DNA of 22,290 nt from a virus (Duplodnaviria; Heunggongvirae; Uroviricota; Caudoviricetes). Every line of letters begins with the position of its first letter. The first letter of the stretch is position 1. Positions 2,061 through 22,016 of the stretch are shown piece after piece. The position numbers were made by a program, and so were the translations under genes. Where the stretch lies: the IMG/VR virus record IMGVR_UViG_2675903562_000009; one strand, written 5' to 3'. The notes below the pieces were generated by a model that was not told where the DNA came from, did no database searches, and saw nothing but the letters and a program-made list of their open reading frames with translations.

Positions 2061-2264
2061 TTACGGTGCTGTTTTAAGTCCTGCCGGGATTTCGTTATTA
2101 TCCTGGTGAATAACTTTATCGACCGGATAACAGTTACCGGGAATTTTCTGCTCCACTGCGGCAACCATGCATTCTTTCATTGAGCCGTATACGCCAGTAA
2201 CCATGTCAACCGGTTCACCGGAAACAAGAAAAACCGTCAGAACAAGTGCAAATGTGATATTCAT
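2061..2264 (-). CDS. Small hypothetical early-left protein (67 aa) with hydrophobic N-terminus
   Basis: ORF-track ORF 2061..2318 trimmed to the internal ATG (MNITFALVLTVFLVSGEP...), which has an AAGGA Shine-Dalgarno about 9 nt upstream. Start overlaps the upstream gene in ATGA fashion. Confidence 0.5.
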   Translation of the reverse strand: MNITFALVLTVFLVSGEPVDMVTGVYGSMKECMVAAVEQKIPGNCYPVDKVIHQDNNEIPAGLKTAP

Positions 2265-2449
2265 TGCCAGTATCCTTTTTGCATCAGACGTAAACGGGCC
2301 AGCATCGAAACAATGCATATTTGATTTAATAACTCCCGTTCGTGTTTTCTCTTATTAATGGCATCTTCAGTAAATACTGGATTACTGATTTTGACACCAA
2401 TTTCAAAACAACCTTCAGACGTATTAACGTTTGGTAATAACGTTTTCAT
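2261..2449 (-). CDS. Small hypothetical protein (62 aa) in the kil position of the leftward operon
   Basis: ORF 2261..2548 trimmed to ATG at 2449 (MKTLLPNVNTSEGCFEIGVK...), preceded by a GAGGGTG SD. Position between the pL-proximal genes and recE corresponds to kil/racC-type genes; identity not established. Confidence 0.5.
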   Translation of the reverse strand: MKTLLPNVNTSEGCFEIGVKISNPVFTEDAINKRKHERELLNQICIVSMLARLRLMQKGYWQ

Positions 2450-3000
2450 TATCGCACCCTCAACAATGAATTTTGTGATGCGGTGCCTGGTGCCTCCAGG
2501 TGACGTTAACCAGTTAACAATTAACGCCGGATACAGAACCCCACCCATAACTTGGTTTTAACTGTTCCGCGTGCGCTTAGCCGCATTCACCGCATCACAA
2601 AATTCACTTTAAAAAGGACGGCAGAGCAGTCACGGAGTAAAACTGATACCGCCAAACGCCACCAGAAAATTGATAACAGAGGGCGTTGCAGCGGGGTTGT
2701 CACTTAAGCGCATGGTCAACCTGACAACCCGGTGTCTCAATGGGGGAGGAATAACCCCGCCATACTTACCGCCGCGCCATTTCGCGGAGTGCCACAACCG
2801 GAAGCGCACGGTCGACGAAAATTTAACGACAGGCTATCTATGAACCAACTACCTCGCCGTGCGCTTTCGCGTTATGCCCTGACTTTTCAGGAAAATGCCC
2901 TTTCAGTAAACTGTCAGTGCCGGATGCTCACCCGTGTCCGGCGCACGCACTCCACCTCACCCGTGGAGAACCCCTTAATTACCAACCCTCAGGAGGGTGA

Positions 3001-3223
3001 AATGACTAGTAAAAATGTAAATATCCAGTTTAACCACGATGTTTCTCCTGCTGGACTTGCGGATGATCTCACCGCTATAAAAACGGCAATTATGCTACTT
3101 GCTGCTAAGTTGCCTGCGTCATCAAAGCCAGCGGAAATTTGTGACTCATTGCGTAAGATGAATTCAACAAAATGCAATGAGATGGCATCACTTATTGAAA
3201 GTGCAATTGATTTTAATGATTAA
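3001..3223 (+). CDS. Hypothetical protein (73 aa) encoded opposite to the leftward operon
   Basis: ATG at 3001 preceded by a strong SD (GGAGGGTGAA). The long form of the track ORF (2732..3223) has an Arg/Pro-rich, non-protein-like N-terminal part and is not adopted. Confidence 0.45.
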
Positions 3224-3587
3224 TCGAAATTTCATGGCTAACTGTAACCCTCCCATCTGTGGCGGGATGGTTTAAATCGCTGGGATTAATGCCGCACTCA
3301 GTAAAATGGTTCTTAAGGGGTTCTATCCGAATCCCTTTCTTTTTCATTAACAAGCCAAACCCCTTATCAATGATATCCATTAATTCCAGGAAGTATTTTT
3401 CATGTAAATCCTGGCTATCAGAGAGCCGCTTCTCTTCGTACAGACCGATAAAGGCACGACGCACGTTACCGGATATAGTATCGATGGTTTCTTTTTCTAC
3501 GGTACTCAGGTCAAGAGTCGCCAGTTGGAAACGAACTATATTCGCTGCCATTTCCTGGAATTGCATTGGTAAATCTTTAAATTCCAT
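3213..3587 (-). CDS. Hypothetical early-left protein (124 aa)
   Basis: Track ORF with protein-like composition (E/K/D/L rich) and a GAGG SD upstream of the ATG at 3587; the overlapping plus-strand ORF 3259..3606 is S/R/F-rich and looks antisense. Confidence 0.55.
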   Translation of the reverse strand: MEFKDLPMQFQEMAANIVRFQLATLDLSTVEKETIDTISGNVRRAFIGLYEEKRLSDSQDLHEKYFLELMDIIDKGFGLLMKKKGIRIEPLKNHFTECGINPSDLNHPATDGRVTVSHEISINH

Positions 3588-3609
3588 TATTAGCCTCGTT
3601 GGTTAGCTA

Positions 3610-3828
3610 TTAACGTGGGTATGTAATCATTCTGGCAATGCTTAATGCCGCTGCTTTTTCCAGCCTGGTGATATCCTGCTCCAGAGCGGACAGATTTTCA
3701 GCCTGCTTAGCCCTGGCTTCATTGGCCCATTTCAGATCCTGCGCTGCATTAATTTTCTGGCGCATCCACTCATAAAGTTCATCATCGGTATAGTCTGGCG
3801 CGATGATGACGGGTTCTCGTTTCTGCAT
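3610..3828 (-). CDS. Hypothetical protein (72 aa), first gene downstream of the putative pL
   Basis: Track ORF; GAGGA SD about 6 nt upstream of the ATG at 3828; charged, helix-prone composition. Confidence 0.55.
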   Translation of the reverse strand: MQKREPVIIAPDYTDDELYEWMRQKINAAQDLKWANEARAKQAENLSALEQDITRLEKAAALSIARMITYPR

Positions 3829-4013: not shown

Positions 4014-4048
4014 GTTGTTAAGGTAACAAGTGTTACCTTTCGAGTCAA
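4014..4048 (-). promoter_or_regulatory. Putative OL/pL: operator GGTAACAAGTGTTACC with leftward promoter-like hexamers
   Basis: Inverted repeat GTAAC-N4-GTTAC at 4023-4036, the same motif as the two sites between cI and cro. On the minus strand a TTGACT -35-like hexamer (plus 4043-4048) lies 17 bp from a weak -10 (TACCTT) that overlaps the operator. Confidence 0.4.
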
Positions 4049-4077: not shown

Positions 4078-4106
4078 CGTGAAAAACCCGCAATGAATGC
4101 GGGTTA
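4078..4106 (-). terminator. Rho-independent terminator downstream of cI
   Basis: Minus-strand hairpin AACCCGCA / loop TTCAT / TGCGGGTT followed by TTTTT, immediately after the cI stop codon at 4111. Confidence 0.7.
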
Positions 4107-4110
4107 TGAC

Positions 4111-4785
4111 TCAGTCTAAGTATTGATGTATTTGTGAAACTTTACCTTTAATGGTGTAACCACCATTCAGTTCGATGGGTTTGTAAAGCGGATTCAGTGA
4201 CAACAGATAGATGTTTGGTCCGTCAATCGCAACTTTTTTTAGTGTTACGTTTGGCGTTCCTTCCAATTGGATTAAGATTATTTTTCCCACCAGTTCTCTA
4301 ATGTTACTTGAGCATGGTGTGATCAGCACGGTAGATCCGTCGGGGATGGTTGGGAGGCCGTTAGAGTTTGTCATCGCATCTCCCTCAACATGCAATAAAA
4401 AAGAGTTTTCAGCGGTTTTTGTCATGACATCAACCCAATTCTTAATACCAGGAATCTCGGTTACTGGACAACTCATATCCCAATAACCAGCCTGTTCCCA
4501 CGTTAAAACGGGCAACCGGGCGATGTTGTCACTAATGTAAAGGTACTGATTCAGACGCAGATCATCGGTTTTATCGTGACCGTCCTTTCCATAAAGAATC
4601 CATTCAGGAGATTTGGAAAGCAATTTTGACAGTAGATGCAAATTCTCACCGTCAGGTTTTGAAGAGCCATTTTCCCATTTTGTTACGGATACACGAGATA
4701 TGCCGATTGCTTTCGCAACCTGCTGTTGGGTTAATCCAACGTCTTTTCGACGATTCCGAATACGTTCGCTGATAGTGTTTTTCAT
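4111..4785 (-). CDS. cI: CI-type prophage repressor (XRE-family HTH N-terminal domain, S24/LexA-like C-terminal domain with Ala at the nucleophile position)
   Basis: HTH segment LTQQQVAKAIGISRVSVTKWENG; C-terminal domain has the LexA/CI-like VEGDAMT motif and a downstream LKK lysine. Start placed at ATG 4785 (MKNTISERIRN...), where the operator abuts the start codon with no SD (leaderless-like); the track ORF extends to a TTG at 4884, and 4827 is an alternative ATG. Confidence 0.85.
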   Translation of the reverse strand: MKNTISERIRNRRKDVGLTQQQVAKAIGISRVSVTKWENGSSKPDGENLHLLSKLLSKSPEWILYGKDGHDKTDDLRLNQYLYISDNIARLPVLTWEQAGYWDMSCPVTEIPGIKNWVDVMTKTAENSFLLHVEGDAMTNSNGLPTIPDGSTVLITPCSSNIRELVGKIILIQLEGTPNVTLKKVAIDGPNIYLLSLNPLYKPIELNGGYTIKGKVSQIHQYLD

Positions 4786-4860
4786 GTAACCAATGTTACT
4801 ACCAAGTGATGTTGCTATGGTTGACATTGTAATGTAACTATTGTTACCCTCCTGCTCGAA
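4786..4860. promoter_or_regulatory. OR-like divergent control region between cI and cro, with repeated GTAAC-N4-GTTAC operators
   Basis: GTAACCAATGTTAC at 4786-4799 and GTAACTATTGTTAC at 4834-4847, centres 48 bp apart, with a degenerate candidate (GTTGCTATGGTTGA) midway giving about 24-bp spacing. TTGACA hexamer at 4821-4826. Confidence 0.6.
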
Positions 4861-4876: not shown

Positions 4877-5092
4877 ATGTTCAAAGATGATGTTCTGCGC
4901 TATTTCAAAAAAAAGCGACTAGTAGCTGAGGCTCTTGGAATTTCACATGTGGCTGTTGTGCGGTGGAAAGCAGTTATTCCCAAACTTCGCGCAATGGAAC
5001 TGGATGAAATTACTAACGGTGAATTGAAATACAACCCAGAACTTTACAAGAAGCAGGATAGCACCTCGAACGAAGGAAAGAATGATTCATGA
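4877..5092 (+). CDS. cro: Cro-type repressor (P22 Cro-like)
   Basis: 71-aa ORF with GGAGAG SD; MFKDDVLRYFKKKRLVAEALGISHVAVVRWKAVIP resembles P22 Cro as remembered; divergent from cI across the operator region. Confidence 0.8.
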   Translation: MFKDDVLRYFKKKRLVAEALGISHVAVVRWKAVIPKLRAMELDEITNGELKYNPELYKKQDSTSNEGKNDS

Positions 5093-5514
5093 AAATCAAG
5101 CATGAACACATCCGCATGGCGATGAATGCCTGGGCGCGTCCTGATGGCGAAAAAGTTCCAGCAGCTGGAATAACCCAGGCTTATTTTGAGTTGGGTATGA
5201 CGTTCCCAGAACTGTATGACGACAGCCATCCGGAAGCCCTGGCTCGTAATACCCAGAAAATTTTCCGCTGGGTAGAGAAAGACACCCCTGATGCAGTTGA
5301 AAAAATTCAGGCGTTGTTACCAGCGATCGAAAAGGCAATGCCACCTTTGCTGGTGGCCAGAATGCGCAGCCACAGTTCAGCTTATTTTCGGGAGCTGGTG
5401 GAGACGCGGGAACGACTGGTGAGAGACGCTGATGATTTTGTCGCAGTGGCGATCGCTGGTTTCAATCAGATGAATCGTGGTGGCCCGGCAGGAAATGCCT
5501 TGGTGATGCACTAA
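5089..5514 (+). CDS. YdaT-family protein (CII-like regulator, sometimes annotated as a toxin)
   Basis: 141-aa ORF overlapping the cro stop (ATGA), AAGGAAAG SD; the N-terminus MKIKHEHI matches what I recall of Rac YdaT; occupies the cII position. Confidence 0.65.
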   Translation: MKIKHEHIRMAMNAWARPDGEKVPAAGITQAYFELGMTFPELYDDSHPEALARNTQKIFRWVEKDTPDAVEKIQALLPAIEKAMPPLLVARMRSHSSAYFRELVETRERLVRDADDFVAVAIAGFNQMNRGGPAGNALVMH

Positions 5515-9480: not shown

Positions 9481-9691
9481 AAACGGTTTGCAGTGAAAGG
9501 GGAGTTAAGTAGAATTGCTGCGGGTGCTTGAGGCTATCTGCCTCAGGCATGAACACCAAAAGGCAGATAGAGAAAAGCCCCAGTTAACATTACGCGTCCT
9601 GCAAGACGCTTAACATTAATCTGAGGCTCAATCTATGTCTCACAAATGTAGGTTAGCCTCTTACGTGCCGAAAGGCAAGGAGAAGCAGGCT

Positions 9692-9847
9692 ATGAAGCAG
9701 CAAAAGGCGATGTTAATCGCCCTTATCGTCATCTGTTTAACCGTCATAGTGACGGCACTGGTAACGAGGAAAGACCTCTGCGAGGTACGAATCCGAACCG
9801 GCCAGACGGAGGTCGCTGTCTTCACAGCTTACGAACCTGAGGAGTAA
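9692..9847 (+). CDS. hok: Hok/Gef-family type I toxin (51 aa) with in-frame upstream extension from 9635
   Basis: MKQQKAMLIALIVICLTVIVTALVTRKDLCEVRIRTGQTEVAVFTAYEPEE is near-identical in pattern to Gef/HokC as remembered; AAGGAGAAG SD; structured leader upstream and a 3' hairpin (GCGAGGG...CCCTCGC at 9856-9877) typical of hok mRNAs. Confidence 0.8.
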   Translation: MKQQKAMLIALIVICLTVIVTALVTRKDLCEVRIRTGQTEVAVFTAYEPEE

Positions 9848-10062: not shown

Positions 10063-10242
10063 ATGAGCTGCCCACTCAAAAAACACACGCGGTTGAGTAT
10101 TCCGCCTCGCGATAAAAGCGTTGTGGCAGTCCCTCGCCCAGCGATTGATGAAAACTGCGCACATCGTGAACAAGTGAAAAATGCTTTTGATTTCGGTTTT
10201 TCTCGTTATGAGAAAGCCATGGAAGAACTTTCAAAAGTGTAA
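10063..10242 (+). CDS. Small ORF (59 aa) upstream of the Doc-like toxin; candidate antitoxin
   Basis: AAGGA SD 9 nt upstream of ATG 10063; ends 18 nt before the Doc-like start; sequence not recognisably Phd/YefM-like. Confidence 0.45.
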   Translation: MSCPLKKHTRLSIPPRDKSVVAVPRPAIDENCAHREQVKNAFDFGFSRYEKAMEELSKV

Positions 10243-10260
10243 TGATGGGTATTGTGCTCT

Positions 10261-10746
10261 ATGGCTGAGATTGTTGAAGGAGTGCATTACCTTACGGTTG
10301 ATGATCTTGTTGAAATCAATCGTTCCCTAATTGAATTACAGACGCCAGATGAGCCCGTTGGTGTTCTGAGTCCAGATAACTTAAGTTCTTCTCAGGCCCG
10401 TCCCAGCATGGTTCGATGGTATGAACAGACTAATGACATGTTTGTACTGGCATCGGTATTGATTGAAAGTCTGATTCAGAATCATCCGTTTGCTAATGCG
10501 AACAAACGAACAGCTATGATGGCTGGTTACGTCTTCTTGTTGTTGAATGGCTATGAGTTAACAGCACCAGGCGATGAAATCGTGGAAATGGCAGAGGGAC
10601 TGGCCTGCAAAACCTATACTCGAGAAGATCTCGAGAACTGGTTGTGTTATTGGTCTCGCGCGTATGACAGCCGGGAATTATGTAAAACAGGCGCAACTAT
10701 TGTTTTGTATGAAACTATCAAGCTTAAAATAGAACAGCAAAACTAA
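10261..10746 (+). CDS. Doc/Fic-family toxin-like protein
   Basis: Contains HPFANANKRTA, matching the Doc-type variant of the Fic motif (HxFx[D/N][A/G]NKR); size is appropriate for a Fic/Doc family member. The track start is a TTG at 10252; the ATG at 10261 is preferred. Confidence 0.7.
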   Translation: MAEIVEGVHYLTVDDLVEINRSLIELQTPDEPVGVLSPDNLSSSQARPSMVRWYEQTNDMFVLASVLIESLIQNHPFANANKRTAMMAGYVFLLLNGYELTAPGDEIVEMAEGLACKTYTREDLENWLCYWSRAYDSRELCKTGATIVLYETIKLKIEQQN

Positions 10747-10861: not shown

Positions 10862-11134
10862 ATGGCGCACAAAAACAAATTTCACAATTCTGATACCGAC
10901 CTTGCCATCCGGCACGGGCGGCGTTCACACGCATTTAAAACCGACTGGTACCAACACCCACCATGTACTGAAGAACAGGCCGAATGGCTAATTCATAACT
11001 ACCGCAGGCGCGGATACGAGGTTAAGAAAGCCCTCAGCCTCGATTATCGTCACTGGATAATCTATGTCAGGCTCCCTTATTCCGAACGCCCACCGCGTCC
11101 GTCCCGCACATTCCAGCAACGCATCTGGAGGTAA
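10862..11134 (+). CDS. Hypothetical protein (90 aa)
   Basis: Track ORF 10781..11134 trimmed to ATG 10862, because the longer form would begin inside the terminator. Weak SD; its stop immediately precedes the SD and GTG start of the next gene. Confidence 0.4.
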   Translation: MAHKNKFHNSDTDLAIRHGRRSHAFKTDWYQHPPCTEEQAEWLIHNYRRRGYEVKKALSLDYRHWIIYVRLPYSERPPRPSRTFQQRIWR

Positions 11135-13290: not shown

Positions 13291-13315
13291 AACCCGCTTA
13301 AATGCGGGTTTTTTG
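13291..13315 (+). terminator. Rho-independent terminator (tR'-like)
   Basis: AACCCGC-TTAAAT-GCGGGTT followed by TTTTTT. Confidence 0.75.
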
Positions 13316-13387
13316 CTTAACTCTGTGGACCTTTTTATCTGTAGTTGTAAGATATGGATATTCTTACAATTTAGGTCGGTGAGCTTA

Positions 13388-14152
13388 ATGGAAGAACAGC
13401 ACGGTAATTACTTTATAAAACGAATTCAGTTGATTGGAAGGGGTGCATTTGGCTTTGTTGAACACGTTAAGGTTTACAACCTCAACAAGGGTGAATGTGG
13501 GGATTATGCTAGAAAGGTTTTAGCCCCCGAAAAACCAGAGCTTTTGGCGCAAATAGAGCAGTTTAGAAGGCGTTTTAAAAGGGAGGTCGTGTATCAATCA
13601 CATTGCGTACATAGCAATATTGTTCCTATTTATTTGTGCGATTTGTTTGCCGAGAATCCATGGTTCATTATGGATAAAGCAGAATGTGATCTTGAGCACG
13701 AAATAACGAACAACCTTCTTACAACAGATCAAAAAATTTCAATAGTGAAAATGGTATTAGATGGTGTAGCTCACATCCATGCGAAAGGCTATTTACACAG
13801 AGATATAAAACCATTTAATGTCTTGCGATTTAGCGACGGAACATACAAGGTGTCTGATTTTGGTCTGGTAAAAGATACAAATCCCGAAGGGGATACCACT
13901 AAATTGACCGAGATCGGTACCCGTATGGGAAGTACAAGATATATGGCTCCCGAGATTTTATATAATGCCGAGTATTCAGTTAAGACTGATGTTTATGCGG
14001 TGGGGCGGTTAATTGAGGACTTAAATTTAGATGATAAAAAAATAAAGCCTATCATAGCGAAGTGTACCAGGATGGATAAAGATGATAGATATCAGACAAT
14101 AGATGATGTGGCGTTTGATTTTGTGCATTCTTTTTTAAGGAGTGAGTCATGA
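13388..14152 (+). CDS. Hanks-type (eukaryotic-like) Ser/Thr protein kinase
   Basis: 254 aa from ATG 13388. Gly-rich loop GRGAFGFV, lysine in YARKVL, catalytic loop HRDIKPFNVL, DFG (VSDFGLV) and APE (YMAPEIL) motifs all present; region is visibly AT-rich relative to neighbours (not computed). Confidence 0.85.
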   Translation: MEEQHGNYFIKRIQLIGRGAFGFVEHVKVYNLNKGECGDYARKVLAPEKPELLAQIEQFRRRFKREVVYQSHCVHSNIVPIYLCDLFAENPWFIMDKAECDLEHEITNNLLTTDQKISIVKMVLDGVAHIHAKGYLHRDIKPFNVLRFSDGTYKVSDFGLVKDTNPEGDTTKLTEIGTRMGSTRYMAPEILYNAEYSVKTDVYAVGRLIEDLNLDDKKIKPIIAKCTRMDKDDRYQTIDDVAFDFVHSFLRSES

Positions 14153-14892
14153 TTCAGCTGATAGCGACTTCATCATTCTCGTATCCAAAAGAACCAGGTA
14201 GGGTCAACGAAGATTCATTGCTTCCTCCCAAAATTGTAGGGGATGGCATCTTATTTGCCGTAGCTGATGGTGTAGGTTCATACACTGGTGCCAGTCAGGC
14301 TTCATCAATGGCAATTGCTGAACTTTCAGCATTGACAAGCTTATCTTTTGACACAGTTCCGGATGTATTTGATGAAGTTAAGCGAAAGGTTATGTCGTTA
14401 GCTGATGTTAATGATGAGTTCGATAAAGCTGCTACTACACTTACGTTTTGTTATGTTTGTGATAGCGGAATTATTATTGGTCATATTGGTGATTGTCGTT
14501 TGTATTGCATTGGAGAGAAGAAAGCATACCAATTGACGAAGGACGATACCAGGCATCAGATGCTAATTGATCAGAATATTTTTAAACCCAGAGATTTGAA
14601 GGATAAACCGGGCAAAAATATCTTAACGACGGCTATAGCCTCAAATGTTGATATGGAATACGACTGTGATTTTATCACATGGAAAGATTTACCTAGTATT
14701 AACGGGGTATATCATCTGTGTATCATGTCTGATGGGGTTCATAACGTTTGGGAAAAACGCCCCAGATTTACATCAAATACGATGAGTAATAGTCAGAAGT
14801 TTTCTAATGGCATTTTGCGTCGTATAGAGAGAGCCGGACCTGATGATGACTTTTCTTTAGTAAGTATAATGGTGCGTGTGACGTCAGATTAG
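14149..14892 (+). CDS. PP2C-family Ser/Thr protein phosphatase
   Basis: 247 aa; start overlaps the kinase stop (ATGA) with AAGGAG SD; metal-binding motifs VNEDS, AVADGVGS, GDCR and MSDGV typical of bacterial PP2C phosphatases. Confidence 0.85.
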   Translation: MIQLIATSSFSYPKEPGRVNEDSLLPPKIVGDGILFAVADGVGSYTGASQASSMAIAELSALTSLSFDTVPDVFDEVKRKVMSLADVNDEFDKAATTLTFCYVCDSGIIIGHIGDCRLYCIGEKKAYQLTKDDTRHQMLIDQNIFKPRDLKDKPGKNILTTAIASNVDMEYDCDFITWKDLPSINGVYHLCIMSDGVHNVWEKRPRFTSNTMSNSQKFSNGILRRIERAGPDDDFSLVSIMVRVTSD

Positions 14893-15459: not shown

Positions 15460-16509
15460 ATGACTAATACTGTAAAAATATCCAGTTGTGAGTTAATCAA
15501 CGCTGATTGCCTGAAATTTATCCAGACCTTACCGGAAAACTCTGTCGATCTGATAGTCACAGACCCGCCATACTTTAAAGTGAAGCCCGAGGGCTGGGAT
15601 AACCAGTGGGAGGGCGACGATGATTACCTGAAATGGCTGGACCAGTGTCTGGCGCAGTTCTGGCGGGTACTGAAGCCTGCCGGAAGTCTTTACCTGTTCT
15701 GTGGTCATCGCCTGGCATCTGACACCGAAATCATGATGCGTGAGCGCTTTAATGTGCTGAACCACATTATCTGGGCGAAGCCGTCCGGACGCTGGAACGG
15801 GTGCAATAAGGAAAGTCTGCGGGCGTATTTTCCGGCAACAGAGCGCATTCTGTTTGCAGAACATTATCAGGGACCGTATCGCCCGAAAGATGATGGCTAT
15901 GTGGCACAGGGGCGCGAGCTAAAACAGCACGTCATGGCCCCGCTGATTTCTTACTTTCGTGATGCGCGTAAATCACTGGGAATAACGTCAAAACAGATAG
16001 CGGAAGCCACCGGAAAGAAAAACATGGCTTCGCACTGGTTTGGTACCAGTCAGTGGCAGTTACCGAACGAGGGTGATTACAACAAATTGCAGGCGTTGTT
16101 TGCGCGTGTTGCGGCAGAAAAACATCAGCGCGGGGAACTGGAAAAGCCACACCACCAGCTGGTCAGCACATACAGTGAGCTGAACCGGCAGTACACGGAA
16201 CTGCTGAGTGAATATAAAAATTTGCGGCGGTATTTCGGTGTGACGGCGCAGGTTCCGTACACCGATGTCTGGACGCATAAACCGGTGCAGTACTATCCAG
16301 GAAAACATCCGTGCGAAAAACCGGCAGAAATGCTGCAGCAGATAATCAACGCGAGCAGTCGTCCGGGAGACCTGGTTGCAGATTTTTTTATGGGTTCAGG
16401 TTCAACGGTAAAAGCGGCGATGGCACTGGGGCGTTGTGCGATTGGTGTTGAGCTGGAGACAGGACGTTTTGAACAGACAGTCAGGGAAGTTCAGGATTTA
16501 ATCGTTTGA
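15460..16509 (+). CDS. Orphan DNA methyltransferase (N6-adenine/N4-cytosine class, beta-type motif order)
   Basis: 349 aa; motif IV DPPY (VTDPPYF) near the N-terminus and motif I FFMGSGST near the C-terminus; overall architecture like YhdJ-type enzymes. No restriction endonuclease gene is adjacent. Confidence 0.9.
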   Translation: MTNTVKISSCELINADCLKFIQTLPENSVDLIVTDPPYFKVKPEGWDNQWEGDDDYLKWLDQCLAQFWRVLKPAGSLYLFCGHRLASDTEIMMRERFNVLNHIIWAKPSGRWNGCNKESLRAYFPATERILFAEHYQGPYRPKDDGYVAQGRELKQHVMAPLISYFRDARKSLGITSKQIAEATGKKNMASHWFGTSQWQLPNEGDYNKLQALFARVAAEKHQRGELEKPHHQLVSTYSELNRQYTELLSEYKNLRRYFGVTAQVPYTDVWTHKPVQYYPGKHPCEKPAEMLQQIINASSRPGDLVADFFMGSGSTVKAAMALGRCAIGVELETGRFEQTVREVQDLIV

Positions 16510-16558: not shown

Positions 16559-16634
16559 GGCCCTTTAGCTCAGTGGTGAGAGCGAGCGACTCATAATCGC
16601 CAGGTCGCTGGTTCAAATCCAGCAAGGGCCACCA
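16559..16634 (+). tRNA. tRNA with CAU anticodon; closely resembles E. coli tRNA-Ile2 (ileX-type, lysidine-dependent), Met not excluded
   Basis: 76 nt with perfect 7-bp acceptor stem (GGCCCTT/AAGGGCC), D-arm GCTCAGTGGTGAGAGC, anticodon loop CTCATAA, T-loop TTCAAAT and encoded CCA. Confidence 0.85.
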
Positions 16635-16635
16635 A

Positions 16636-16712
16636 CCGTCACCAGTTCATCAGGAAAGAGCGTCAACCCTTTAAGTTGAGTGTGCGAGGTTCGAGTCCTC
16701 GGTGGCGGGCCA
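16636..16712 (+). tRNA. Non-canonical tRNA-like gene (anticodon loop CCTTTAA, nominal UUU) or tRNA pseudogene
   Basis: Acceptor stem CCGTCAC/GTGGCGG (one G-U), T-arm CGAGG-TTCGAGT-CCTCG and encoded CCA, but C at positions 8 and 33 and an atypical D-arm. Begins 1 nt after the preceding tRNA. Confidence 0.45.
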
Positions 16713-16714
16713 GT

Positions 16715-16790
<76 letters not shown>

Positions 16791-16793
16791 TAT

Positions 16794-16868
<75 letters not shown>

Positions 16869-17333: not shown

Positions 17334-18746
17334 ATGTCTGAACCCTTATCTGGTTCCGGCACGGCTGCGGCGCTCGGTGGGGCGACGGTATTCGGGCTGT
17401 TTACCGGAACGGATTTCGGGATTGTGTTTGGTGCGTTCGCCGGGGCGTTATTTGTGGCAACGATGCCGCAGGCGCTTTCAATCTGGCGTGTGGTGGCGCA
17501 TTTTTTGGTGTCGTTTATCGTCGGCGTGCTGGGGGCGCGCGTGCTGTCAGCCTGGATTGCATCAAAAACAGGGTATGACGGTACATCGGCAGATGCGCTG
17601 TGTGCGGTGCTGGTATCGGTGGTGTCGGTGAAGATTGCGGATATCAGGCAGGTTGAAACCACAGCACGCTATCTTGGCACGGCGCTGTACTGGATAGCCG
17701 CCAGTATCAATATCAGGCCGGGCCATAATTATTATTTTTACGTTCGCAGTGTGAACACCGTTGGCAAATCGGCATTCGTGGAGGCTGTTGGTCAGCCGAG
17801 TGATGACGCATCCGGCTATCTGGATTTTTTCAAAGGCGAGATAGGGAAAACCCATCTGGCTCAGGAGCTGTGGACGCAGATTGATAACGGTCAGCTTGCG
17901 CCTGACCTGGCTGAAATCAGGACATCCATTACGGATGTCAGCAATGAAATCACACAGACCGTCAATAAGAAACTGGAAGACCAGAGTGCAGCGATCCAGC
18001 AGATACAGAAGGTTCAGGTTGATACAAATAATAACCTGAACAGCATGTGGGCTGTGAAGCTGCAGCAGATGCAGGACGGACGCCTTTATATCGCGGGTAT
18101 CGGTGCCGGTATTGAGAATACGCCAGCAGGCATGCAGAGTCAGGTGCTGCTGGCGGCAGACAGGATTGCGATGATTAATCCTGCGAATGGCAACACAAAG
18201 CCGATGTTTGTTGGTCAGGGCGATCAGATATTCATGAACGAAGTGTTCCTGAAATATCTGACGGCTCCCACCATTACCAGCGGCGGTAATCCTCCGGCAT
18301 TTTCCCTGACACCGGACGGAAAGCTGACCGCTAAAAATGCGGATATCAGTGGCAGTGTGAATGCGAACTCCGGGACGCTCAACAACGTCACGATTAACGA
18401 GAACTGCCGGGTTCTGGGAAAACTGTCCGCGAACCAGATTGAAGGCGATCTCGTTAAAACAGTGGGCAAAGCTTTCCCCCGGGACTCCCGTGCACCGGAG
18501 CGGTGGCCATCAGGGACCATTACCGTCAGGGTTTATGACGATCAGCCGTTTGACCGGCAAATTGTTATTCCGGCGGTGGCATTCAGTGGCGCTAAGCATG
18601 AGAGAGAGCATACTGATATTTACTCCTCATGCCGTCTGATAGTGCGGAAAAACGGTGCTGAAATTTATAACCGTACCGCGCTGGATAATACGCTGATTTA
18701 CAGTGGCGTTCCCGCCGTCACATGCCGGGACCATCACCGTGTATGA
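17334..18746 (+). CDS. Chimeric ORF: about 100-aa hydrophobic N-terminus joined to a C-terminal fragment resembling tail-tip host-specificity protein J; likely a deletion remnant
   Basis: ATG 17334 with AGGAGA SD. First ~100 aa contain three hydrophobic stretches. From about [42 protein letters not shown] onward the sequence parallels the C-terminal third of lambda J as remembered ([42 protein letters not shown]). Confidence 0.6.
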
Positions 18747-21480
18747 AGATTCCCGACCCGGTACGCTGAATGATTTTCTCGGTGCCATGACGGAGGATGA
18801 TGCCCGTCCGGAGGCACTGCGCCGTTTTGAACTGATGGTGGAAGAGGTGGCGCGTAACGCGTCCGCAGTGGCACAGAACACGGCAGCCGCGAAGAAGTCA
18901 GCCAGTGATGCCAGCACATCAGCCCGTGAGGCGGCAACCCATGCGACTGATGCTGCAGGCTCAGCACGCGCAGCCAGCACGTCAGCCGGACAGGCCGCGT
19001 CGTCGGCTCAGTCAGCGTCTTCCAGCGCAGGAACGGCATCGACAAAGGCCAGTGAAGCAGCGAAAAGTGCTGCTGCTGCAGAGTCATCAAAAAGCGCGGC
19101 AGCTACCAGCGCCAGTGCCGCGAAAACGTCAGAAACGAATGCCGCAGCATCACAAAAATCGGCAGCCACTTCTGCATCCACAGCGACCACGAAGGCGTCA
19201 GAAGCTGCCACCTCGGCACGGGGGGCGGCGGCCTCAAAAGAGGCAGCGAAATCATCAGAAACGAATGCATCATCAAGTGCCAGTAGTGCAGCTTCCTCGG
19301 CAACGGCGGCAGGAAATTCCGCGAAGGCGGCAAAGACGTCTGAGACAAACGCTAAGTCTTCTGAAACGGCAGCAGCACAGAGTGCCTCAGCTGCGGCAGG
19401 TTCAAAAACAGCGGCTGCATCGTCGGCCAGTGCCGCGTCAACAAGTGCCGGGCAGGCCTCAGCCAGTGCCACCGCCGCCGGAAAATCGGCAGAAAGCGCC
19501 GCATCATCCGCTTCAACAGCCACAACGAAGGCTGGCGAAGCCACTAAGCAAGCCACTGCAGCAGCGAGGTCTGCTTCTGCAGCAAAAACCTCTGAAACAA
19601 ATGCAAAGACTTCAGCAGACAATGCTGCTTCCTCTAAGGCGGCAGCCGCATCGTCCGCTGGTTCAGCGGCGTCATCGGCATCATCTGCGTCTGCTTCAAA
19701 AGATGAGGCGACCAGACAAGCGTCAGCAGCGAAAGGTAGTGCCACGACAGCAACAACGAAAGCATCAGAGGCGGCAGGCAGTGCGACGGCTGCATCTCAG
19801 AGCAAAGTTGCTGCTGAATCCGCGGCAACGCGTGCCGAAACAGCAGCAAAACGGGCAGAGGATATTGCTGATGCCGTATCTCTGGAAGATGCGAGCACGA
19901 CGAAAAAAGGTGTGGTTCAGCTCAGCAGTGCGACCAACAGCACTTCCGAGTCACTGGCGGCAACACCAAAGGCAGTAAAGGCAGCATATGACCTTGCTAA
20001 CGCAAAATATACCGCTCAGGATGCAACGACGGCACGAAAAGGGATAGTTCAGCTCAGTAGCGCCACTAACAGCCCGTCTGAAACGCTGGCTGCGACACCA
20101 AAAGCGGTTAAGGCGGTAATGGATGAAACGAACAAGAAAGCGCCTTTAAACAGTCCTGCGCTGACCGGAACGCCAACAACGCCAACTGCGCCAAAAGGGA
20201 CTAATAATACTCAGATCGCAAGCACGGCTTATGTGATGGCCGCGATTGCCGCACTTGTAGACTCGTCGCCTGACGCACTGAATACGCTGAACGAGCTGGC
20301 GGCGGCGCTGGGAAACGACCCGAATTTTGCGACCACCATGACTAACGCGCTTGCGGGTAAGCAACCGAAAGATGCCACCCTGACGGCGCTGGCCGGGCTT
20401 GCTACTGCGGCAGACAGGTTTCCGTATTTTACGGGGAATGATGTCGCCAGCCTGGCAACCCTGACAAAAGTCGGGCGGGATATTCTTGCGAAATCGACCG
20501 TTGCCGCTGTTATCGAATACCTCGGTTTACAGGAAACGGTAAGTCAGGCTTCTGGCGCATTACAGAAAAACCAGAACGGCGCAGATATTCCAGGAAAAGA
20601 TACCTTCACCAAAAATATTGGTGCCTGCCGCGCATATAGCTCATGGCTGAATATTGGTGGCGATAGTCAGGTCTGGACAACCGCGCAATTTATTTCGTGG
20701 CTGGAGAGTCAGGGGGCATTTAACCATCCTTACTGGATGTGCAAAGGCTCATGGGCTTATGCAAATAATAAGGTCATTACAGATACAGGTTGCGGAAATA
20801 TTTGTCTTGCAGGTGCTGTGGTGGAAGTTATTGGCACTCGCGGCGCAATGACCATACGCGTTACTACGCCGAGCACGTCCAGCGGTGGCGGAATTACTAA
20901 CGCTCAATTCACTTATATTAATCATGGTGATGCTTACGCTCCTGGCTGGCGACGAGACTACAACACGAAAAACCAGCAGCCTGCATTTGCTTTAGGGCAA
21001 ACAGGACGCAGGGTCGCAAATGATAAAGCTGTTGGCTGGAACTGGAATAGCGGTGTTTATGATGCAGATATCAGTGGTGCATCGACATTAATCCTCCACT
21101 TCAATATGAATGCGGGGAGTTGCCCTGCTGTACAGTTCCGCGTGAATTACAGGAACGGCGGTATTTTTTATCGTTCAGCGCGTGATGGTTATGGCTTTGA
21201 AGCTAACTGGTCAGAGTTTTACACCACAACACGCAAACCCTCTGCGGGGGATGTTGGTGCATATACGCAGGCAGAATGTAACTCAAGGTTTATTACAGGT
21301 ATTCGCCTTGGCGGTCTGTCATCTGTTCAGACATGGAAAGGCCCCGGCTGGTCTGACAGGTCAGGTTATGTCGTTACGGGTTCAGTTAACGGAAACCGTG
21401 ATGAATTAATTGATACAACTCAGGCAAGGCCAATTCAGTATTGCATTAATGGGACGTGGTATAACGCGGGGAGTATTTAA
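18703..21480 (+). CDS. stf: Side tail fibre protein (Stf/StfR-like), lacking the usual N-terminal about 55 aa
   Basis: 925-aa ORF. Begins at a GTG with no SD, exactly at the conserved [15 protein letters not shown] motif; long Ala/Ser-rich repeat region; duplicated KKG(V/I)[21 protein letters not shown] module; C-terminal domain with YRNGG(I/L)FYRS(A/S)RDGYGFE. Opposite-strand and alternate-frame ORFs here are artefacts. Confidence 0.85.
18880..19900 (+). repeat. Coding low-complexity tandem repeats (Ala/Ser/Thr-rich fibre shaft)
   Basis: Recurring DNA units such as GCGAAAACGTCAGAAACGAATGC / GCAAAGACGTCTGAGACAAACGC encoding AKTSETNA-type motifs. Confidence 0.7.
20511..20536. other. gix/pix/cix-like crossover site for a Gin/Pin-family DNA invertase, inside stf
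   Basis: TTATCGAATACCTCGGTTTACAGGAA differs at about 2 positions from the Mu gix sequence as remembered (TTATCCAAAACCTCGGTTTACAGGAA); it lies in the codons for [10 protein letters not shown], the conserved constant/variable boundary of invertible tail-fibre genes. Confidence 0.7.
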
Positions 21481-21482
21481 CG

Positions 21483-22016
21483 ATGATGCACTTAAAAAAC
21501 ATTACTGCTGGCAACCCTAAAACAAAAGAGCAATACCAGCTAACAAAGCAATTTAACATCAAATGGCTTTATTCAGATGATGGAAAAAACTGGTATGAGG
21601 AACAAAAGAATTTCCAGCCAGACACTTTGAAAATGGTCTATGACCATAACGGCGTTATTATTTGTATTGAAAAGGATGTTTCAGCAATTAATCCAGAGGG
21701 TGCAAGCGTCGTTGAATTACCTGATATTACAGCAAATCGCCGGGCTGATATTTCGGGGAAATGGATGTTCAAAGATGGCGTAGTGATAAAGCGAACTTAT
21801 ACCGAGGAAGAGCAGAGGCAACAAGCGGAAAATGAAAAGCAAAGCCTGTTGCAACTTGTCAGGGATAAAACCCAGCTATGGGACTCACAGCTACGGCTGG
21901 GCATCATTTCCGACGAGAATAAACAAAAATTAACCGAGTGGATGCTCTATGCGCAGAAAGTCGAATCTACAGACACCTCCAGCCTGCCAGTAACATTTCC
22001 AGAACAACCAGCATGA
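21483..22016 (+). CDS. tfa: Tail fibre assembly protein (Tfa family)
   Basis: 177 aa immediately after stf (GGGGAG SD); C-terminal pattern EEQRQQAE...L.EW..Y...V...DTSS.P..FPEQP typical of Tfa chaperones. Confidence 0.8.
   Translation: MMHLKNITAGNPKTKEQYQLTKQFNIKWLYSDDGKNWYEEQKNFQPDTLKMVYDHNGVIICIEKDVSAINPEGASVVELPDITANRRADISGKWMFKDGVVIKRTYTEEEQRQQAENEKQSLLQLVRDKTQLWDSQLRLGIISDENKQKLTEWMLYAQKVESTDTSSLPVTFPEQPA

Follow-up and report, generated by a model that had tools for sequence, protein, structure and literature searches.

Textbook induction of a lambdoid prophage requires the repressor to cleave itself, and the locus described here raises the question of what becomes of a prophage whose repressor retains the fold for this reaction but not the nucleophile. 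The locus lies in a 22,290-nt stretch of Caudoviricetes DNA (IMG/VR record IMGVR_UViG_2675903562_000009; the whole stretch is called the window below), in which a minus-strand gene at 4111-4785 encodes a helix-turn-helix (HTH) plus Peptidase_S24 protein, an immunity repressor of the lambda CI / P22 C2 type. A prophage identical to the window lies beside ompW on the chromosome of enterotoxigenic Escherichia coli (ETEC) O6:H16, where the repressor is annotated as a 'LexA family protein'. The reading favoured here, with rather more belief than doubt, is that this is a working immunity repressor that has lost self-cleavage by a serine-to-alanine change and would be blind to the SOS response, a natural ind-minus form.

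An S24 repressor without its nucleophile

The protein combines an HTH_3 domain (residues 9-63, E 2e-16), about 40% identical to the N-terminal domain of P22 C2, with a match to Peptidase_S24 (PF00717) over residues 92-216 that spans profile positions 1-115 of 116 (Pfam, E 9.4e-17). Among solved structures, a phmmer comparison places full-length lambda CI (3bdn, E 1e-13) closest in sequence, followed by the P22 C2 DNA-binding domain (E 3e-12). An AlphaFold model computed with 29 homologues (mean predicted local distance difference test score, pLDDT, 82) returns as its top Foldseek matches the lambda CI structures 3bdn, 2hnf, 2ho0 and 8gmu (RecA-bound), with LexA structures next, and the matches to lambda CI and LexA C-terminal domains have E-values of 1e-8 to 1e-6. 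The S24 domain is recognisable by both profile and fold, and the two-domain architecture, the Ala-Gly bond in the linker and the lysine general base are all shared with lambda CI and P22 C2; the one catalytic difference is alanine where these have the nucleophilic serine. In the phmmer alignment to 3bdn, 'hvEGDAMt' lies over 'evEGNSMt', 'tlKKv' over 'tfKKl' and 'eQAGyw' over 'vQAGmf', placing Ala137 on Ser149, Lys183 on Lys192 (LexA Lys156) and Ala99-Gly100 on the Ala111-Gly112 scissile bond. The plus-strand letters at 4375-4377 read 'cgc', which gives the minus-strand codon GCG. When 78 database homologues are aligned with lambda CI and LexA (MAFFT), the nucleophile column holds Ser in 72 of the 78 and Ala in 4, the remaining two being a degenerate Arsenophonus protein and a truncated protein. 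Across the family the Lys183 column is invariant and Ala99 and Gly100 are nearly so. Because an 88%-identical homologue reads VEGDSMTN at the window's VEGDAMTN, the alignment that places Ala137 on the nucleophile is not in doubt. Of the features that mark an S24 self-cleaving protein, then, the serine of G-x-S-M is missing, the lysine is present, and so is the interdomain bond, Ala-Gly being one of its accepted forms beside Cys-Gly and Leu-Gly; a single one of the Ala-type proteins inspected departs from Ala-Gly.

A preliminary description of this DNA had aligned the domain to LexA and lambda CI by eye, had read the alanine codon as one transversion away from TCG and had noted the retained lysine. 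Sequence, profile and fold comparisons bear out the alignment and the lysine, and TCG is the codon found in a natural allele with 96% nucleotide identity (L017), which differs from GCG at this position by a single T/G transversion. The profile alignment and the survey of homologues, proposed there as checks, gave the results above.

LexA S119A and lambda CI S149A, which carry the identical substitution at the identical position, lose self-cleavage, and structure entries of mutants of this type are among the sequence and fold matches of the window protein. By analogy with them, the Ala137 repressor is predicted to have lost self-cleavage, and its standing as a natural equivalent of ind-minus appears well supported; lambda cI ind-minus mutants affect the same class of residue, and repression blind to SOS would be expected here as it is there. 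Unlike the non-cleavable mutants made in the laboratory, the alanine in question is natural, and fixed in hundreds of genomes and in whole clusters of E. coli and Salmonella sequences.

It is highly improbable, in our judgement, that the protein is nevertheless cut, whether in trans, by an S24 protein such as a homoimmune repressor that has the serine, or very slowly, through water or another residue. Such cleavage would suit the conservation of Ala99-Gly100 and Lys183 in Ala lineages, and the shared operators and near-identical C-terminal domains of Ala and Ser alleles make heterodimers conceivable; intermolecular cleavage does occur for LexA fragments and for UmuD. However, LexA S119A and lambda CI S149A are stable enough to serve as non-cleavable forms in structural work, Ser-type partners are rare (about 16 genomes), and conservation of the lysine and the Ala-Gly region can be structural. 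The threonine that follows the methionine was considered as a nearby nucleophile and set aside, being present in Ser alleles and in lambda as well and so not compensatory; there is no compensating Ser or Thr specific to Ala alleles.

Distribution of the Ala and Ser alleles

The repressor gene is present in 702 of the 5426 complete E. coli genomes surveyed. An exact Ala-bearing 81-mer centred on codon 137 occurs in 642 of the 5426 (~12%), a recurrence which argues that Ala137 is not a sequencing error, and its hosts include ST131-like and O111 enterohaemorrhagic (EHEC) strains; the TCG version of this 81-mer has an exact match in none of the 5426. With three sequenced variants added to the 642 exact matches, Ala carriers number at least 645 genomes against about 16 with Ser, a residue count that leaves out the variant 81-mers carried by some 41 of the 702 genomes. 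L017 of strain FDAARGOS_1077, the Ser allele nearest to that of the window, has 26 differences from it in 717 bases, and the type that it forms with L022 is found in 8 complete genomes, mostly O55:H7. The second Ser type, with codon TCA and 84% nucleotide identity, is found in 8 complete-genome records; the sole example examined (L003, O178:H19) is a prophage that converts its host to production of Shiga toxin 2a (Stx2a). Both types resemble the window in having identical right-hand operators at identical spacing and the same flanking genes, and differ from it in the serine and in lying in prophages that look intact.

Alanine is not confined to the window allele. A second Ala haplotype (L018-L020) differs from it at 17 coding positions and at just 2 amino acids. 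An E. coli 90%-identity cluster, P0002 (89% amino-acid identity to the window protein), has Ala in 9 of 9 full-length members, and a Salmonella enterica cluster at 70% identity, which includes subspecies diarizonae and uses codon GCA, has it in 15 of the 15 variants listed; no Ser protein more than 71% identical to the Salmonella cluster was found in the collection. Cluster P0003 has Ser in 15 of 15 and an Enterobacter cluster in 5 of 5. From the distances between alleles and the placement of Ala and Ser clusters, the codon must have changed at least three times in the clade on any tree, by three losses or by one loss with reversions; as judged from these sequences, shared descent with reversion and independent losses of serine are equally parsimonious. 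A deep Ala ancestry shared with P0002 had been suggested by the comparison of the window allele with that cluster (synonymous divergence, dS, 0.53; omega 0.11) and is undercut by the 96%-identical Ser allele. Import of an Ala-bearing patch into P0002 by recombination, suggested by eye, was rejected on segment-wise distances, which have the central segment as the more conserved one in all comparisons.

In the wider family, 102 full-length representatives of 50%-identity clusters have Ser in 85, Ala in 5, Thr in 5 and other residues in 7. Since the column is thus other than Ser in 17 of 102, catalytically dead S24 repressors are not rare, and many of these proteins have a degenerate cleavage site as well. 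What seems to set the window case apart is that the change is recent, that only the hydroxyl is gone, that Ser sisters with the same operators exist, and that the allele is very common in E. coli. Full-text literature searches found no account of the allele, nor of any natural Ser-to-Ala CI repressor in E. coli. No record of an isolated phage encodes a relative of more than 60% identity; the same is true of the Ser sister alleles, and so this absence is uninformative on inducibility. A natural truncated relative in E. coli, P0009 (132 aa), is 87% identical over its length and has no S24 domain; it stops shortly after the Ala-Gly site, which makes it about as long as DicA or as the N-terminal product of cleavage.

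The gene has been kept under constraint. Compared with more distant alleles, the window allele gives a ratio of non-synonymous to synonymous substitution (dN/dS) of 0.09-0.11 over the whole gene and of about 0.05 for the C-terminal domain, and in the Salmonella Ala cluster variation is concentrated in the linker while the surroundings of the dead active site are unchanged in the 15 variants listed. These two observations indicate a repressor that is maintained and not decaying; it is annotated as intact in every record listed.

The immunity region

The surroundings of the gene are those of a lambdoid immunity region (Table 1), with a divergent cro and repeated operators at both early promoters in addition to the N-terminal HTH. 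The palindrome GTAAC-N4-GTTAC occurs in the window at three exact sites and at one site with a single mismatch, where shuffled sequence gives a chance expectation of 0.45 for exact or one-mismatch sites. The operator that abuts the repressor ATG is likely an autoregulatory site, overlapping as it does the inferred -10 element of the repressor's own promoter (PRM), and its sequence and position are identical in all Ala and Ser alleles bar small variants; the operator within the rightward early promoter (PR) is identical in all seven alleles compared, including those of Salmonella and Enterobacter. PR faces cro, and the leftward early promoter (PL), with a spacer of 17 between its hexamers, faces the leftward operon. 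A strict consensus promoter scan called neither PR nor PL. The stem-loop that follows the repressor stop is likely an intrinsic terminator, and it is absent from the output of the signal scan. The operators over the -10 elements and the purifying selection on the gene suggest that this protein confers immunity and represses PL and PR. As far as the sequences reveal, the immunity module is complete, and its operators, cro and promoter layout are conserved between Ala and Ser alleles.

Table 1. Coordinates of the repressor gene, its catalytic positions and the surrounding immunity region in the window.
Feature	Position	Strand	Basis or remark
Immunity repressor gene, lambda CI / P22 C2 type	4111..4785	-	224-aa open reading frame (ORF) plus stop
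N-terminal HTH_3 domain	4597..4761	-	Pfam E 2e-16
C-terminal S24 (LexA-like) domain, nucleophile gone	4138..4512	-	residues 92-216
Codon 137 GCG, Ala at nucleophile Ser position (lambda Ser149, LexA Ser119)	4375..4377	-	alignments
Codon 183 AAA, Lys, general base of Ser/Lys dyad (lambda Lys192, LexA Lys156), retained	4237..4239	-	
Ala99-Gly100, equivalent of lambda CI Ala111-Gly112 scissile bond, retained	4486..4491	-	
Operator GTAAC-N4-GTTAC abutting repressor ATG	4786..4799	.	exact match
Operator palindrome GTAACTATTGTTAC, between -35 and -10 of rightward lytic promoter	4834..4847	.	
Inferred PR: -35 TTGACA 4821-4826, -10 TACCCT 4845-4850, spacer 18	4821..4850	+	read by eye
Inferred PL: -35 TTGACT 4043-4048, -10 TACCTT 4020-4025	4020..4048	-	read by eye
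Operator GTAACACTTGTTAC over inferred PL -10	4023..4036	.	exact palindrome; layout as at PR
Stem-loop and T-run AACCCGCA-TTCAT-TGCGGGTT-TTT directly after repressor stop, likely terminator	4082..4105	-	read by eye
Divergent cro, P22_Cro family	4877..5092	+	Pfam E 2.9e-16; annotated Cro/CI family regulator
CII-like activator (YdaT family)	5089..5514	+	PHROG 163, E 3.7e-45
Leftward early operon: ydfC, 124-aa ORF, DicF, dicB, DUF1482/ydfD-like	2061..3828	-	annotation of identical record
DicF small RNA	2616-2667	-	Rfam 70.8 bits
dicB	2261-2449	-	annotation
DUF1482/ydfD-like gene	2061-2264	-	Qin counterpart ydfD annotated lysis protein

The divergent cro and the operators at both PL and PR are as in lambda and P22, as is a repressor transcript that is likely leaderless or short in its leader, with an operator over its -10. 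In contrast to those phages, the right side has two strong operators 48 bp apart instead of three adjacent ones, and the operator is a 14-bp palindrome. A closer counterpart in layout is the Qin prophage: its repressor gene dicA occupies the same genomic position, with dicC/cro on one side and ydfA-ydfC-dicF-dicB-ydfD on the other, the leftward operon of the window follows the gene order dicA-ydfABC-dicF-dicB-ydfD, and the HTH regions are 54% identical (window 4567-4776 against L024 7935-8342). The window repressor thus appears to fill the DicA slot of a Qin-like prophage, with a full S24 domain added. The DicA-like HTH and the syntenic flanks suggest, as an observation apart, that one locus in this phage family alternates between short, antirepressor-controlled repressors and long ones of the S24 type.

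The start of the gene is annotated differently in RefSeq, 14 codons further upstream at 4827, which gives a protein of 238 aa. The short form, with its start at 4785 and 224 aa, is the more likely one on comparative grounds, because the only well-conserved stretch of the extension, 'SNIGYM', coincides with the operator palindrome GTAACATTGGTTAC and the rest is variable, and because more distant homologues and DicA start at the methionine of the short form. The long form was accordingly set aside, the conservation of 'SNIGYM' being attributed to the operator.

State of the carrier prophages

The preliminary description had also connected the alanine with domestication, pointing to missing lysis and morphogenesis genes. 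The window does lack them: lysis, terminase, head and most tail genes are gone, a truncated holin is joined directly to a truncated tail-tip (J-like) gene at a deletion junction (17334-18710, at ~17580-17630), and tail fibre and assembly genes survive at 18703-22016. The carriers at the yccA-serT site in O111:H8 and RM9131 are likewise decayed, with a frameshifted integrase and three IS1203 copies beside the Ala allele. (At the far end of these prophages, L016 and L021 38651-40382, lie tccP2 and a partial espV, genes for type III effectors, so that the decayed prophage doubles as an effector-carrying island.) However, in the ST131-like strain 81009 the Ala allele sits at ompW in a prophage of ~55 kb with a complete lysis, head and tail set and two insertion sequence (IS) insertions, and in CM2010-0578/1 an identical repressor protein is encoded by a prophage at potC in which the 36 kb inspected are free of annotated disruptions. 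All three Ser prophages examined look intact. Domestication is therefore only part of the picture: the window and O111-type carriers fit it, and the near-complete ST131 prophage and the intact-looking potC prophage do not. Ala is enriched in decayed prophages but not confined to them, in a sample that is small and clonally confounded. Given the identical protein in the intact-looking potC prophage, the codon change is older than, and independent of, the deletion in the window prophage.

This order of events also bears on the notion that the alanine is a neutral lesion in a dead prophage, in which the loss of lysis and morphogenesis genes made inducibility irrelevant and left the serine codon to drift. 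The loss of everything from holin to tail tip in the window prophage, together with the frameshifted integrase and the IS1203 copies of the O111-type carriers, speaks for it. We nonetheless think it quite unlikely: the identical protein is encoded in undisrupted and near-complete prophages, the rest of the gene is under strong purifying selection, drift would not strike the nucleophile codon alone in three separate 90%-identity clusters, and a defective prophage that carries dicB, the DUF1482/ydfD-like gene and DicF is not indifferent to derepression.

Other routes out of lysogeny

The statement in the preliminary description that the prophage is non-inducible by SOS presumes that no antirepressor route exists, and one acting in trans from another prophage is possible; such a route would fit the persistence of Ala lineages. 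On this account the repressor is uncleavable but the phage is inducible, a small antirepressor, possibly LexA-controlled and encoded elsewhere in the prophage or in another one, stripping the repressor off DNA, and the Ser-to-Ala change is nearly neutral. Models exist in the Gifsy prophages, coliphage 186 (Tum), N15 (AntC) and Qin (Rem acting on DicA). In the Gifsy prophages the repressors are short, and a dinI-antirepressor operon under LexA control lies 1.3 kb downstream of the replication genes (PMC3121763). Like DicA and the Gifsy repressors GfoR and GtgR, the window repressor would be expected to stay uncleaved upon SOS induction. The resemblance to these systems is limited, as DicA and the Gifsy repressors are without the S24 domain and the Ala-Gly bond (PMC10448788; PMC3121763) whereas the window protein, which is not a short S24-less repressor, is without the hydroxyl only; nor does the window or any Ala prophage examined have a recognisable cognate antirepressor or LexA-controlled operon of the dinI type.

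In favour of an antirepressor, the same prophage family includes DicA, whose related HTH is controlled by Rem (PMC10448788), antirepressors work in trans on non-cognate repressors (PMC3121763), the Ala allele occurs in intact-looking and near-complete prophages and at three attachment sites, and Ala lineages persist and diversify. A candidate pair was also noted in strain 81009, where an ash-family gene and the gene of a Rha-family regulator lie at the attR end, between the tail-fibre region and attR (L014 5954-6783), behind a near-consensus promoter, TTGACA-17-TATATT. Proteins with a Rha domain sometimes carry an antirepressor annotation. However, the window's own prophage does not contain this pair, no LexA box precedes it in the ST131 prophage, and the other searches yielded no usable candidate. 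Among the unassigned ORFs of the window there is no PHROG or Pfam match to an antirepressor family; neither the window nor the Ala prophages examined have a dinI-like gene; tblastn with Qin Rem finds no homologue, and the ORF that takes the place of Rem (10862-11134) is not similar to it. The window contains no exact LexA box, and a scan of the prophages examined for near-boxes, in which the sulA box scored 17/20 as a positive control, found no convincing LexA-box promoter and no operon with a LexA box that would set Ala prophages apart from Ser ones. A single strong LexA-like box was seen, TACTGTAAAAATATCCAGTT at 15468-15487 (16/20 consensus match), which resembles the LexA box of uvrB; it is placed 8 bases into a DNA N6/N4 methyltransferase gene (15460-16509) and is conserved in position in related prophages of both Ala and Ser types (L002, L003, L017, L023). 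Nothing found distinguishes Ala from Ser prophages except the codon itself, and taken as a whole the antirepressor account seems to us rather doubtful.

A model for the Ala repressor

The data allow the construction of a model in which the protein acts as the immunity repressor of a Qin-like lambdoid prophage. This model proposes that the HTH binds the GTAAC-N4-GTTAC operators overlapping PL and PR and so would shut off both the leftward DicF/dicB/ydfD operon and the rightward cro-cII-replication operon, while the S24-fold domain would be retained for its part in dimerisation and in cooperative binding. The serine nucleophile of the Ser/Lys dyad would have been lost through one T-to-G change (TCG to GCG), such that upon formation of the RecA filament no self-cut would be made at Ala99-Gly100. 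Repression would then be blind to SOS, as the Ala allele probably is on the strength of the mutant analogy, and the prophage, along with any homoimmune phage in the same cell, may remain silent during DNA damage. The host would be spared SOS-triggered killing as well as SOS-linked expression of dicB, DicF and the DUF1482/ydfD-like gene. Ala and Ser alleles have identical operators, from which dominance of the Ala protein over homoimmune Ser-type phages, the Stx2a phage among them, is predicted. A selective advantage is plausible because, in the mouse gut, induction is 1000-fold lower with lambda cI ind-minus and lysogeny no longer carries a fitness cost (PMC4752277), and the prevalence of Ala is consistent with its retention.

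Several observations weigh against this model. The Ala allele occurs at three attachment sites with three integrases, as well as in an intact-looking prophage, which is easier to understand if the phages still spread and hints at another exit from lysogeny. The persistence and diversification of Ala lineages could likewise mean that self-cleavage is dispensable because another exit route exists. The lysine and the Ala-Gly bond remain conserved in Ala lineages, in which some erosion would be expected were cleavage obsolete, and just 1 of the 15 Salmonella variants listed has Val-Gly at the cleavage bond. Further, oversampled clones, among them ST131-like clinical isolates, inflate the figure of 642 genomes.

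A more far-reaching version is possible but decidedly tentative. It would make the nucleophile codon a recurrent, selected one-base switch that turns an SOS-inducible lambdoid phage into an SOS-blind resident, dominant over homoimmune Ser phages and favoured by selection in the gut. Within that version, the Ala repressor would provide an immunity that DNA damage does not lift and would block induction of homoimmune Ser-type prophages, Stx2a-converting ones included, and hence toxin release, in double lysogens, and host-level selection in the gut would explain the Ala:Ser ratio of about 40:1 in complete genomes. Alternatively, the Ala forms are possibly still active phages, in which a Rem-like antirepressor acting on the DicA-like HTH took over induction.

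Other features of the window

Just downstream of the Q antiterminator, at 13313-14892, lies an overlapping pair of genes for a eukaryote-like Ser/Thr kinase (Pkinase, E 3e-33) and a PP2C phosphatase, also found in the Ser-type prophage L017 and absent from the ST131 and O111 carriers. The early right region holds toxin modules at 9522-9847 and 10063-10746: one is hokD with the sok antisense RNA (Rfam 121.6 bits), and a Doc-family toxin (10261-10746) is preceded by a 59-aa ORF, a possible antitoxin. In a tRNA cluster at 16559-16868, upstream of the lysis region, ARAGORN calls four tRNAs (anticodons CAT, TTT, TTT and TCC) and Rfam and RefSeq three, the extra tRNA-Lys call at 16636-16712 being perhaps degenerate or spurious. 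The corresponding cluster in the Ser-type relative L003 is followed by the stx2a genes.

Implications

A natural one-base polymorphism at the nucleophile codon separates very close alleles of a lambdoid repressor whose operators do not differ. A review of prophage 'grounding' names defects in integrase and att sites, and not catalytic mutations of the repressor (PMC6379469); if the Ala form is SOS-blind, it would ground a prophage by way of the repressor instead. It would likewise offer a field example of the advantage that lambda cI ind-minus has in the mouse gut (PMC4752277), and may act as a natural brake on the induction of homoimmune Stx phages. These consequences should be kept in proportion, as S24 repressors with a dead nucleophile are not rare in sequence space and the SOS-blind phenotype is a predicted one; the Ala repressor is a natural variant of a well-known system, carried by about 12% of complete E. 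coli genomes.

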